Source: Hormiphora californensis
Lineage: Eukaryota; Animalia; Ctenophora
NCBI GenBank assembly: GCA_020137815.1
Contig: CM035353.1
Location: forward strand, 620,001 to 684,000
Direction of reading: 5' to 3'
Length of the DNA: 64,000 bases
A program made the position numbers and the translations under genes. Of the stretch, positions 9,101-12,100 are shown piece after piece. The notes under the pieces are model-generated. The model saw only the letters and a list, made by a program, of their open reading frames with translations, did not search any database and had not been told where the DNA came from. Numbering within the stretch: position 1 is the stretch's first letter; every line of letters begins with the position of its first letter.

Positions 9101-12100
9101 ACGCAATATATACAGTAGGAAGAAAAAAATTATATATGCTATCCATTGAAACCTTTTCCTTTCAGCCGAGCTAAATTTTAAAATCTACAAGTTTTATTTA
9201 ATGGGTTAATTAATCAATTCAAATAATTTGGTGAGGCGTTTTTTGGAAAATTTGCACCGGGGCAAAGTGGCCCAAGCCAATAGCATTGCTCGATTTTATC
9301 ACGTGCCTGGTGTTGTTAGACGAAACGATCAAATTAGGGGCAAAGTGGCCCATGTTCTGCACCGGAACATGGGCCACTTTGCCCCTAATTTGACCGTCTG
9401 GACTACATTTTTGTGCATTCCAATGTCACGTGGTAGTGCAGGCGCCATTTCATTGGTCCTAGAGGTGGGCCACTTTGCCCCAGACCGGACCACTTTGCCC
9501 CGGAGAGTGGGCCATATTCGCCCCGATTTCACTTAATTGACAATTAAGACAACAAAAATGCCAATTTGTTCAAAATTTTTATACCACGTTTTAGAGAATT
9601 ATAAAGCCTAACTGGCAGTTTTTGCAATATTGAAATCGGCCAACCCAAACAGAAATGACAGCAGTTTTAAAGTGAAAATTCGGAACAGAACGAGCAGGTC
9701 TCCGCTGGAGAAAAAGTCACGTGACCACATGTAATAACTAGGGCCACTTTGCCCCAAACATGGGCCACTTTACCCGGTGGGCCAAACTACCCCAGCTTAC
9801 CCTAATTGGAAATCTCTATCAACACAATATGTATGATCAATGTAAGACTAGTATTTATGTAGCCAATGATATGAAACACAAATATGAATATAATCTGCCA
9901 CACAGGTTGGACAGTTCTGGTTCTAATATAATAAAACGACTTAAAGGCACCCAAGTTTCCCTCATTGGCTCCACGAGCAACACAACATGCGGTACTATAA
10001 CCTCAGTTAACACTTTGAACCCAAGATCTGCCGCAGATCAGACTTACACAATATCCTGCCCTGCTACTACCGAGCCCACTATAGCTGTGTTTCTGTACGA
10101 TGACACTATAGATAGTGACTATGATAACAATAATGGATGGCTGATAATGAATGTCGCGGAAGTGAATGTTCTTGGGTGGAAGTTTCAAACTTTTCAACAC
10201 TACTTTAAACAAATTAATTTGAGAAAGCCATGTCCAAGTAACAACCCCCGGACGCTAGTACGAGGAGCCGGTCACCACTATGTTTAAGAATGTGACTCTA
10301 CCTACCCCCGATTTCAACTCCTCGAGTACGAGTTCTATCTCACTCTACTCTTCCGCCTCCTCTACGGTATCATCCCCGATCAATGTATCAGTTGCAGTCC
10401 ACCAGACAGTTAGGGACTTAGAAGATATACAATCTGATAATGTTCTGGTAAACAAAGCGGATTTATTAAGGCTGCTAAACAACACCACTCAAAGCAGGCC
10501 ACTCCCGCGCCCCGTAAAGGTGTTCAGTAGTGATGATGGTGTTACAGCGGCTATACACTACCGAAATTTCGTTTCCTCCTCGACCCTGGACGAGCTGAAA
10601 ACAACAGTGCCCCAGCAGTTTGCGGAAAATCCCAGAACCCCCACCTCCTACAAATGGCTCTCCAGTACATCGGTAAGCTACGGGTGGGGAGAGTTCGAGC
10701 TACGGGCACATAGAACCCCTAAGCCAATTAGTGTTCTCATGGCTAGTGTCAACGAGATGTTCGGAACTGAGTTTAATGGGTGTCTCTTGGTATATTATAG
10801 GGACAGTAATGCGAAACTGGGGTTCCACTCCGATAGGGAGCGCATGAACGATCCGGCATCTCCTATCATCAATGTTTGCATAGGACAGTCTAGGAATCTG
10901 GTGTTCAGGACTGCGACAGACCCACATCAGTTAAAAGCCTGTTTCGAGTTGGGTGAAGGTGACTGTGTGTACTTCACACCGGAATGTCAGGATCTCTTCC
11001 AACATGCAGTGCAGGAGGCTACCAGGACCACACCGGCTGGCTGGAGAGCAGTGCTGTCATTTAGGAAGGTGGCACTATCTGGAAACGGTGCTACATCCAC
11101 CCCTGCCCAATCCAGAAAAACTGTCTGTAGGATGTTCCCCTCCCCTGCTGTACCACCCTCCCCAGTCCAGTCAGAAACTCAGCAACTCGTCCCAGTACCT
11201 GAGGAAACCCCTACTCCTCCTCCTCCTCCCCCTTCACACAATGAGGAGTCTCCTATGCCTGAGGAGACATACCAAATGACCGCCGGAACACCATTAATAT
11301 GCCCTTGGTCATGGTCATTGGTCCCCCGACTTATTTGGCTAGGGATCTATTGCACCTGGGACCCACCTTTTCACGTTTTTGGTTGAGTTTAACCGTGCTG
11401 GGCGACCTACTGGAGGATCGCTTGCGGTTACGCGTTGGCGATCGACTCCTGTCACCCGCATAAGCTGAAGGTATATCTTGAGTTGTACTGTTTTTCCTTC
11501 GGGGAGAAAGGCTTGAGTGGAAGGGCGAGCGACTGCCTGAAAGGTGATAGGAAAGGGTGACATATACATATTTTGACGAACAGCTGTTTGTACAACGCAC
11601 GTTATTTTACAAATACTATCTGAACTTGTATCCTGCTCAGATCCCGCAGGGACAGCATAGCATAGCTAATGCTGCCACTGAGGGATAATCAGAGCAGTTT
11701 ACATACACACTCAACCAAAACTAGATTCACCAACGGTGGAAAATAAATAACAGTTTATAAAAATTAAGGTCTCGAGTCTCGACACGTACCTGAGTGACGA
11801 GATCGAGTACTGCTCTCTTCAATCTTCTCTATCCGTGGTGTCCGGGACTTTTTCCGAGGGGGACTCAGATCCTCCTTGGTGATGTGATCACGGACGGTTG
11901 TCGAGGAAGGGCTTATATCGTCAACCTCGATACTTTTACGGTACTTTTTCCGTTTTGCCTTCTTTTGTTTGTGACTGAGAGAGAAATGGATTCGATCAAA
12001 GAAGTGTGATAACAAAAACTAAAAATGGGATACATATATTTATTGTTTTAGAGGGTGCCAAACATAAACATCATTTTTTTGTATTTACCTTGCTTCGGCA

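Follow-up and report, generated by a model that had tools for sequence, protein, structure and literature searches.

In a 64-kb window of the genome of the ctenophore Hormiphora californensis (the whole stretch of DNA analysed here), the host spliced leader (SL) exon lies inside a protein-coding gene, in the form that it has after splicing. The locus raises the question of how the leader came to stand there, what kind of sequence it heads, and whether the arrangement is common in this lineage. The H. californensis leader is present on 56% of Iso-Seq reads, and 718 genomic SL copies have been counted in this species and 491 in Mnemiopsis (PMC8527503). In the consulted parts of that paper, these dispersed copies, which have the same sequence as the window motif, are neither classified nor tied to LINE retrotransposons. 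Genomic SL copies confuse SL-gene counts and gene models in ctenophores.

The spliced-leader motif in the window

Two copies of the leader were found:

10180..10223, plus strand: SL exon copy 1, with matching nucleotides at 10181-10223; its 5' 8 nt may be common to the target
43647..43682, plus strand: SL exon copy 2 (the 3' 36 nt), followed by CG and by an ATG at 43685 that opens 37 codons

The first is a 44-mer that a sequence search of the window showed to be directly followed on its 3' side by AAAGCCATG. Compared by eye, it agrees with the published H. californensis SL exon at 43 of 44 positions (PMC8527503), and the same leader occurs at mRNA 5' ends in 9 of the 20 metagenome loci described below, which bears out the identity proposed in an earlier, sequence-only reading of this DNA. 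That reading had also noted a recurrence of the motif's 3' 36 nt about 33 kb away, and the second copy is indeed 34/36 identical, with two mismatches, at a distance of 33.5 kb; the probability of such a copy arising by chance was roughly estimated at 7e-11. No third copy was found on either strand of the 64-kb window with query lengths of 20-44 and up to 20% mismatch. The exon is continued by AA in copy 1 and by CG in copy 2, with no GT donor, no SL-gene intron behind and no SL-gene promoter ahead, so that the leader was rightly described as being in post-splicing form. A DNA-transposon terminus was considered as another origin of the motif and rejected: no minus-strand (inverted) copy exists within the 64-kb window, and LINE ORFs and tails stand behind the motif in other loci.

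Insertion site

The leader interrupts a gene with the following parts:

8814..9034, plus strand: host gene exon 1, coding for a signal peptide and the start of an F5/F8 type C / F-type-lectin-like domain (translation; weak Pfam match)
9044..9802, no strand assigned: MITE-like insert in the host intron (9035-9905), recognized by terminal inverted repeats and by contigs of runs X1 and X5 that skip 759 nt
9906..10179, plus strand: host gene exon 2, the insertion target, on the same strand as the insert (splice sites and frame from the sequence; near single-copy depth)

The SL insertion sits in sense orientation within this lectin-like gene, whose exon 1 matches Pfam F5_F8_type_C under the cut-off (E 3.5e-4) and whose exon 2 matches nothing. 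The left breakpoint carries an uncertainty of up to 8 nt, because base 10180 differs from the SL and the reading frame of the lectin continues through the motif. The contigs of four sequencing runs were compared with positions 8450-13750 of the window. They place the right end of the insert at about 11266-11270, where contigs break, and depth drops at 11266-11271. No target-site duplication was found at either SL copy of the window, apart from chance matches of 5-9 nt, and no 3' tail was found at copy 1. We attribute the lack of both at copy 1 to truncation, since tails exist in three related loci (L006, L009 and L018); the earlier proposal of a 3'-truncated insert thus agrees with the contig breaks, the fall in depth and the missing tail and duplication.

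Several minor features were observed around the insert. The MITE-like element is polymorphic, being missing from an allele in both samples, and provides a haplotype marker separate from the SL element. A low-copy segment (11267-12700) adjoins the truncation point; in sample S2 its left neighbour at 11267 is a different one, and 11813-12520 is not covered. A resemblance over 10 nt of the sequences at 8787 and 10234 was judged to be due to chance.

The sequence behind the first copy

Two features follow the leader within the insert:

10224..10253, plus strand: 5' cassette common to the SL-headed LINE L011 (alignment), holding an upstream ORF (uORF) at 10230-10241
10280..11266, plus strand: likely LINE ORF1, 3'-truncated, with an AlkB/2OG-Fe(II) oxygenase domain and a Pro-rich linker (Pfam, relatives, depth)

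The leader had been described as joined to a start codon. The ATG at 10230 opens a frame of three codons, Met-Ser-Lys-stop, and the long ORF starts at 10280 in a different frame, running past the insert into the flank up to 11386; the leader is not joined to a productive start codon. The AlkB domain (ca. 10640-11030) matches Pfam 2OG-FeII_Oxy_2 with an E value of 4.9e-18, and its HxD..H..R residues are intact and invariant among 13 aligned sequences. AlkB domains reportedly occur in LINE ORF1 (Repbase), and a literature search found no published description of them there. The relatives of the frame are distant, with 35% identity at best; a GDSL/SGNH esterase match was detected in 11 of the 25 relatives scanned, and the full-length cluster member of the top match (693 aa) contains both AlkB and GDSL esterase domains. 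An esterase domain in ORF1 is known from CR1, RTEX and Penelope elements, as described in the consulted parts of PMC3905857. A homologue search with the 367-aa frame returned no match at E<=0.001, a weak search with P0273 found no longer fused form of the AlkB frame, and neither an esterase nor a plus-strand ORF2 remnant of copy 1 occurs in the 64-kb window. An endonuclease is encoded in L011, which has the 30-nt 5' cassette of the window but not its ORF1. Copy 1 is likely a 3'-truncated copy of a LINE retrotransposon, a designation that rests on its relatives and on the cassette, since no ORF2 or esterase is linked to the AlkB frame.

The contigs also document the multi-copy nature of this body. 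Run X1, possibly the window's own source, yielded one 1045-nt contig identical to 10222-11266 with a depth of 133, vs 28-63 for neighbouring unique contigs, and X5, from a second sample, yielded three identical contigs with depths of 1287, 1868 and 2867 from 5' to 3', vs 128-394 for unique contigs, depth being a rough guide that gives no copy number. The body is multi-copy and nearly invariant, with the profile of a young, dispersed element which continues elsewhere and was cut short here; by the same rough depths in X1 and X5, its family includes more copies of the 3' part than of the 5' part. The X1 contig begins precisely on the AG at 10222, as it would if a sister copy had a different base before this AG. 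No RNA dataset was among those listed as containing the stretch, which has no bearing on expression.

Spliced-leader loci in metagenome contigs

One scan of metagenome contigs with an SL pattern gave 21 matches in 20 loci, none of which was dropped; neither the viral contigs nor the contigs of prokaryote genomes contained any match to the same pattern. The 20 loci can be divided into one SL-gene/5S array, nine host mRNA 5' ends and ten others. The array, in which the leader continues as SL+GTAAG, has a tandem unit of 778 bp that contains both an SL RNA gene and 5S rRNA:

L013:263-381, 692-830, 1041-1159 and 1470-1600: ctenophore-type SL RNA gene and 5S rRNA units

In the nine mRNAs, the SL lies 0-6 nt from the contig end and is followed by a host ORF of 267-705 aa; SL contigs with varied continuations were also obtained from X21, an RNA-labelled run. 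The motif is the SL exon found on unrelated mRNA 5' ends.

Seven of the ten remaining loci contain LINE endonuclease/RT ORFs, three contain ORF1-like frames, and none (0/10) is a host retrogene, a count biased by the fact that low-coverage metagenome assemblies favour multi-copy repeats. Both an endonuclease and a reverse transcriptase (RT) are encoded in L005, L006, L009 and L020, and an endonuclease in L011 and L012; L002 has a weak endonuclease match, under the Pfam cut-off, and an ORF1 61% identical to that of L020. From its motifs, the RT of these LINEs may be L2/CR1-like, the homologues carrying no clade names. Three copies (L005, L006 and L009) are SL-headed with ORF1 and ORF2 open, and two of them (L006 and L009) run from the SL to a (TAT)n tail, so that together with L018, which has a (TAA)n tail, three loci end in (TAT/TAA)n. 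The three loci without Pfam support as LINEs are L010 and L018, with mutually related ORF1-like frames and no ORF2, and L017, the ORF1-like frame of which is interrupted by a satellite. The L018 frame has no Pfam or PDB match, its nearest atlas clusters being unnamed ctenophore proteins (54-218 members, score 0.91-0.92). This SL exon, joined at its exact 3' end, is the start of ctenophore-type LINEs that have at least three unrelated types of ORF1.

Two side observations concern these elements. In L018 (456-1625) and L010, the single ORF1-like frame without ORF2 is suggestive of likely non-autonomous "half-LINEs". The ORF2 of L006 (1395-4730) contains a tandem repeat between the endonuclease and the RT, with about eight copies of a unit of about 14 residues; the repeat is in frame and leaves the ORF open.

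The second SL copy of the window belongs to the same picture, with a LINE fragment on its 3' side, and another LINE end is found beside the first insert:

43800..44066, plus strand: C-terminal fragment of a LINE ORF2 (reverse-transcriptase thumb region; tblastn)
11612..11743, minus strand: 3' end of a separate, 5'-truncated LINE, which belongs to the L009 family with 93% identity (alignment; high depth)

The ORF2 fragment, which begins 117 nt after SL copy 2, has 36-43% identity with ORF2 of L005, L006 and L009 (tblastn, E 4e-13 to 4e-16), and copy 2 looks like an SL-headed LINE with an internal deletion. The context of this copy had been called unrelated, a view to be corrected because copy 2 also heads LINE sequence. 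With it, endonuclease and/or RT coding sequence of APE-type LINEs is found in seven loci and one window copy (L002 under the cut-off). Both window copies and all ten loci that are neither SL genes nor mRNAs head LINE or LINE-like sequence. The pattern is common in the lineage, as had been suggested.

Junctions and 5' cassettes

In all 12 relic copies (ten loci and two in the window), the junction lies at the last AG of the exon, with 35-43 SL nt kept. An upstream flank of 35-455 nt is present in six of the ten loci, and these flanks show no relationship among themselves or with the SL gene; the other four loci have at most 14 nt upstream and could be RNA or collapsed-repeat contigs. Alignments between the flanks of the 12 copies and the SL gene array were limited to chance matches of 9-16 nt. 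An SL-gene-targeting element of the NeSL/CRE/SLACS kind was also considered and was rejected, as the flanks are unrelated to the SL gene array. The sequence-only reading had proposed to separate genes from relics by the GT that follows the SL, a test that would misfile two of the ten loci (L009 and L012), the 5' UTRs of which begin with GT. Placed directly after the SL, this GT could in principle offer a cis donor to an acceptor before ORF1.

Immediately behind the leader, the 30 nt in the window and those in L011 after its TTTCAG spacer agree at 25 positions, a score reached by 0 of 200000 random windows. A TTTYAG spacer behind the SL is kept in L010 and L018 and missing in L017 and in the window copy. 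The first ATG opens a uORF of 1-4 codons in the window, L010, L011, L017 and L018 (5/5), vs 0/9 host mRNAs. Folding of the post-SL cassettes revealed no common structure. We infer two usable acceptors, the window copy having been made at the downstream one. In the larger family, an alignment places an acceptor-like TGTT(T/A)YAG just before ORF1 in five of six members, which may represent a second trans-splice site with a translation-only mRNA as its product. In L002, L005, L006, L009 and L020, the conserved acceptor-like motif lies ca. 140-190 nt behind the SL, before the ORF1 ATG and after a U-rich, ATG-free 5' UTR.

Proposed origin of the SL-headed copies

Ctenophore LINE RNAs are probably trans-spliced and then copied into the genome by target-primed reverse transcription to near the cap. 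The host would trans-splice the element transcript, whereby the upstream part is removed and a capped SL added, and the ORF2 product would begin at the 3' tail of this RNA and reverse-transcribe it up to a point 1-9 nt short of the 5' end of the SL. A 5'-complete LINE copy would therefore start with the SL. Window copy 1 would afterwards have lost all sequence beyond ca. 11266. As first suggested from the window, the feature is best explained by a trans-spliced RNA that was reverse-transcribed as far as its 5' end.

A LINE must carry a promoter inside its own RNA or lose the promoter on each copy. SL-headed copies would lack an internal promoter and could be expressed by read-through from host transcription and trans-spliced again at the SL's terminal AG or at the TTTYAG just behind it; the window copy would have arisen from the second site. 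SL-headed LINEs may thus not need a promoter of their own. By extension, many ctenophore LINE families would have given up internal promoters, read-through and the acceptor at the SL end would regenerate a capped unit-length RNA in each cycle, and a large share of the hundreds of ctenophore genomic SL copies would be self-renewing 5' ends; we regard this extension as close to evenly balanced, leaning slightly against it. Such renewal would leave no trace, because the reusable AG is the SL's last dinucleotide. Trans-splicing should strip the 5' end of a LINE, and the families appear to persist with the host leader instead. If SL-headed copies are active, they would join internal promoters and 5' ribozymes as a third solution, in an animal and in several families. 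If the proposal is true, it would explain many unclassified genomic SL copies in ctenophore assemblies, and the SL would provide a simple tag for 5'-complete LINEs.

Alternative explanations

A first alternative shares the initial steps of the explanation above and differs in the life cycle only. In each family, masters with a promoter and an outron of their own would produce RNA that receives the SL as any other Pol II transcript does; copies headed by the SL would be promoterless by-products that never act as sources. This is possible, though it is not what we would expect. In Hydra, an SL is present on about 30% of the TE Iso-Seq reads, as far as the consulted parts of PMC12220107 report, so that trans-splicing of TEs can be incidental, and a sister copy with a native acceptor explains the contig start at 10222 no worse than one with SL+TTTCAG. 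Against it, L005, L006 and L009 have an SL at their head and both ORF1 and ORF2 open, and L002, L006 and L020, which are diverged (ca. 70% DNA identity), have an identical SL junction. Masters could not spread if every progeny copy lost the promoter, and the many diverged families are hard to square with this.

The sequence-only reading took the RNA for a host mRNA, as in dinoflagellate relict-SL retrogenes; specifically, a trans-spliced host AlkB mRNA would have been reverse-transcribed in trans by a LINE and inserted. The SL placed directly on an intronless ORF, the locus without ORF2 and a related protein (P0004, 34%) that is a P. bachei gene model are in its favour. However, the body is multi-copy and near-identical with a depth rising in the 3' direction, the first ATG belongs to a uORF as in all four related elements and in none of the nine host mRNAs, and the 5' cassette is common to an endonuclease-bearing element (L011). 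A host mRNA origin is very improbable.

Equally to be weighed is a single capture of the SL exon as DNA, which would serve LINEs as an internal promoter or initiator with no renewed trans-splicing. SL exons act as promoter elements in nematodes. In Symbiodinium, a promoter role of SL relics has been proposed (PMC5585692, consulted in part). Against it, the matched 31-nt SL core is identical in families that have unrelated ORFs or ORFs with 30-60% identity, which agrees with renewal from SL RNA, but the search pattern itself selects for this core. Alternative splice acceptors would account for the 6-nt TTTYAG spacer being there in some elements and missing in others, and a captured promoter appears quite improbable.

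An assembly artefact, in which the lectin/SL junction is chimeric, was considered because none of the contigs listed for the region crosses 10179/10180 with 31 nt to its left and right. Contig-end values indicate that an allele contig in X1 and X5 spans 10081-10187 and reaches 8 nt into the motif, L011 backs the join between the SL and the body, and a false left join would leave the general SL-LINE pattern standing, so that we hold this explanation very doubtful. Scarcely credible, finally, is a template switch or ligation chimera like U6-L1, with the RT jumping from LINE RNA to SL RNA or SL-capped mRNA: plenty of SL-capped RNA is available and window copy 2 is internally rearranged, but in all 12 copies the 5' start of the element is joined precisely to the 3' AG of the exon, and neither SL intron nor any piece of host mRNA is present, which largely refutes it.

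Comparison with known systems

The trans-spliced LINE RNA proposed here shares features with several systems. An earlier study of relict SLs in dinoflagellates, by Slamovits and Keeling in 2008, is reportedly among those cited in the dinoflagellate papers. Relict-SL retrogenes and re-splicing at the relic AG are known in dinoflagellates, where, as in ctenophores, a genomic post-splicing SL marks a reverse-transcribed trans-spliced RNA and the relic AG has been proposed as the next acceptor (PMC5585692, PMC3229502, both consulted in part). In contrast to the host-gene bodies and truncated tandems of relics described in these papers, the ctenophore copies have LINE bodies with 0 tandem relics in 12 copies, and their reusable AG is the SL's own last dinucleotide. 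Similarly, TE RNAs of another early-branching animal, Hydra, receive the host SL; this concerns the RNA level only, and genomic copies that start with the SL are undescribed in the consulted parts of that work (PMC12220107).

The ctenophore elements resemble CR1/L2-group APE-type LINEs in having two ORFs, an APE endonuclease and RT, simple-repeat tails and a modular ORF1, for which the consulted sections list esterase, PHD or CCHC domains (PMC4120745, PMC3905857). They differ in that the 5' end is a host-derived SL and not an element-encoded promoter (cf. the Hebe initiator, PMC2861651), and the ORF1 of the window element differs from those in the sections cited by carrying AlkB.

For other retrotransposons, namely NeSL, CRE, SLACS and CZAR, the insertion target is the SL RNA gene and the endonuclease is of the restriction-like type. 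They too are found beside SL exon sequence, whereas the ctenophore flanks show no relation to the SL gene array and the relatives have an APE endonuclease. LINEs bearing a 5' ribozyme, such as R2 and L1Tc, likewise have their 5' end defined by a cut in a longer co-transcript, a task that in ctenophores the host spliceosome would fulfil while adding a cap. Our literature search found no description of genomic LINEs beginning with an SL, and SL-headed LINEs were absent from the consulted parts of papers on Hebe, SLFinder, SLIDR, Macrostomum, Echinococcus TRIM, orchid AlkB and chaetognaths.

Other repeats in the window

Several further elements were observed. Very high-copy short repeats occur at 8682-8774, 13055-13271 and 13380-13515, two of them palindromic, and are present in organism B too. 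Decayed minus-strand LINE fragments at 13800-17350 and ca. 19300-22000 lie beside two copies of one gene, presumably NUBP/Mrp-like by its translation, and point to a local duplication. A satellite at 22934-23394 recurs at the end of L017 with 68-75% identity. On the plus strand, an open 646-codon frame (61874-63814) encodes a DDE_1 / HTH_psq transposase of pogo-like type.
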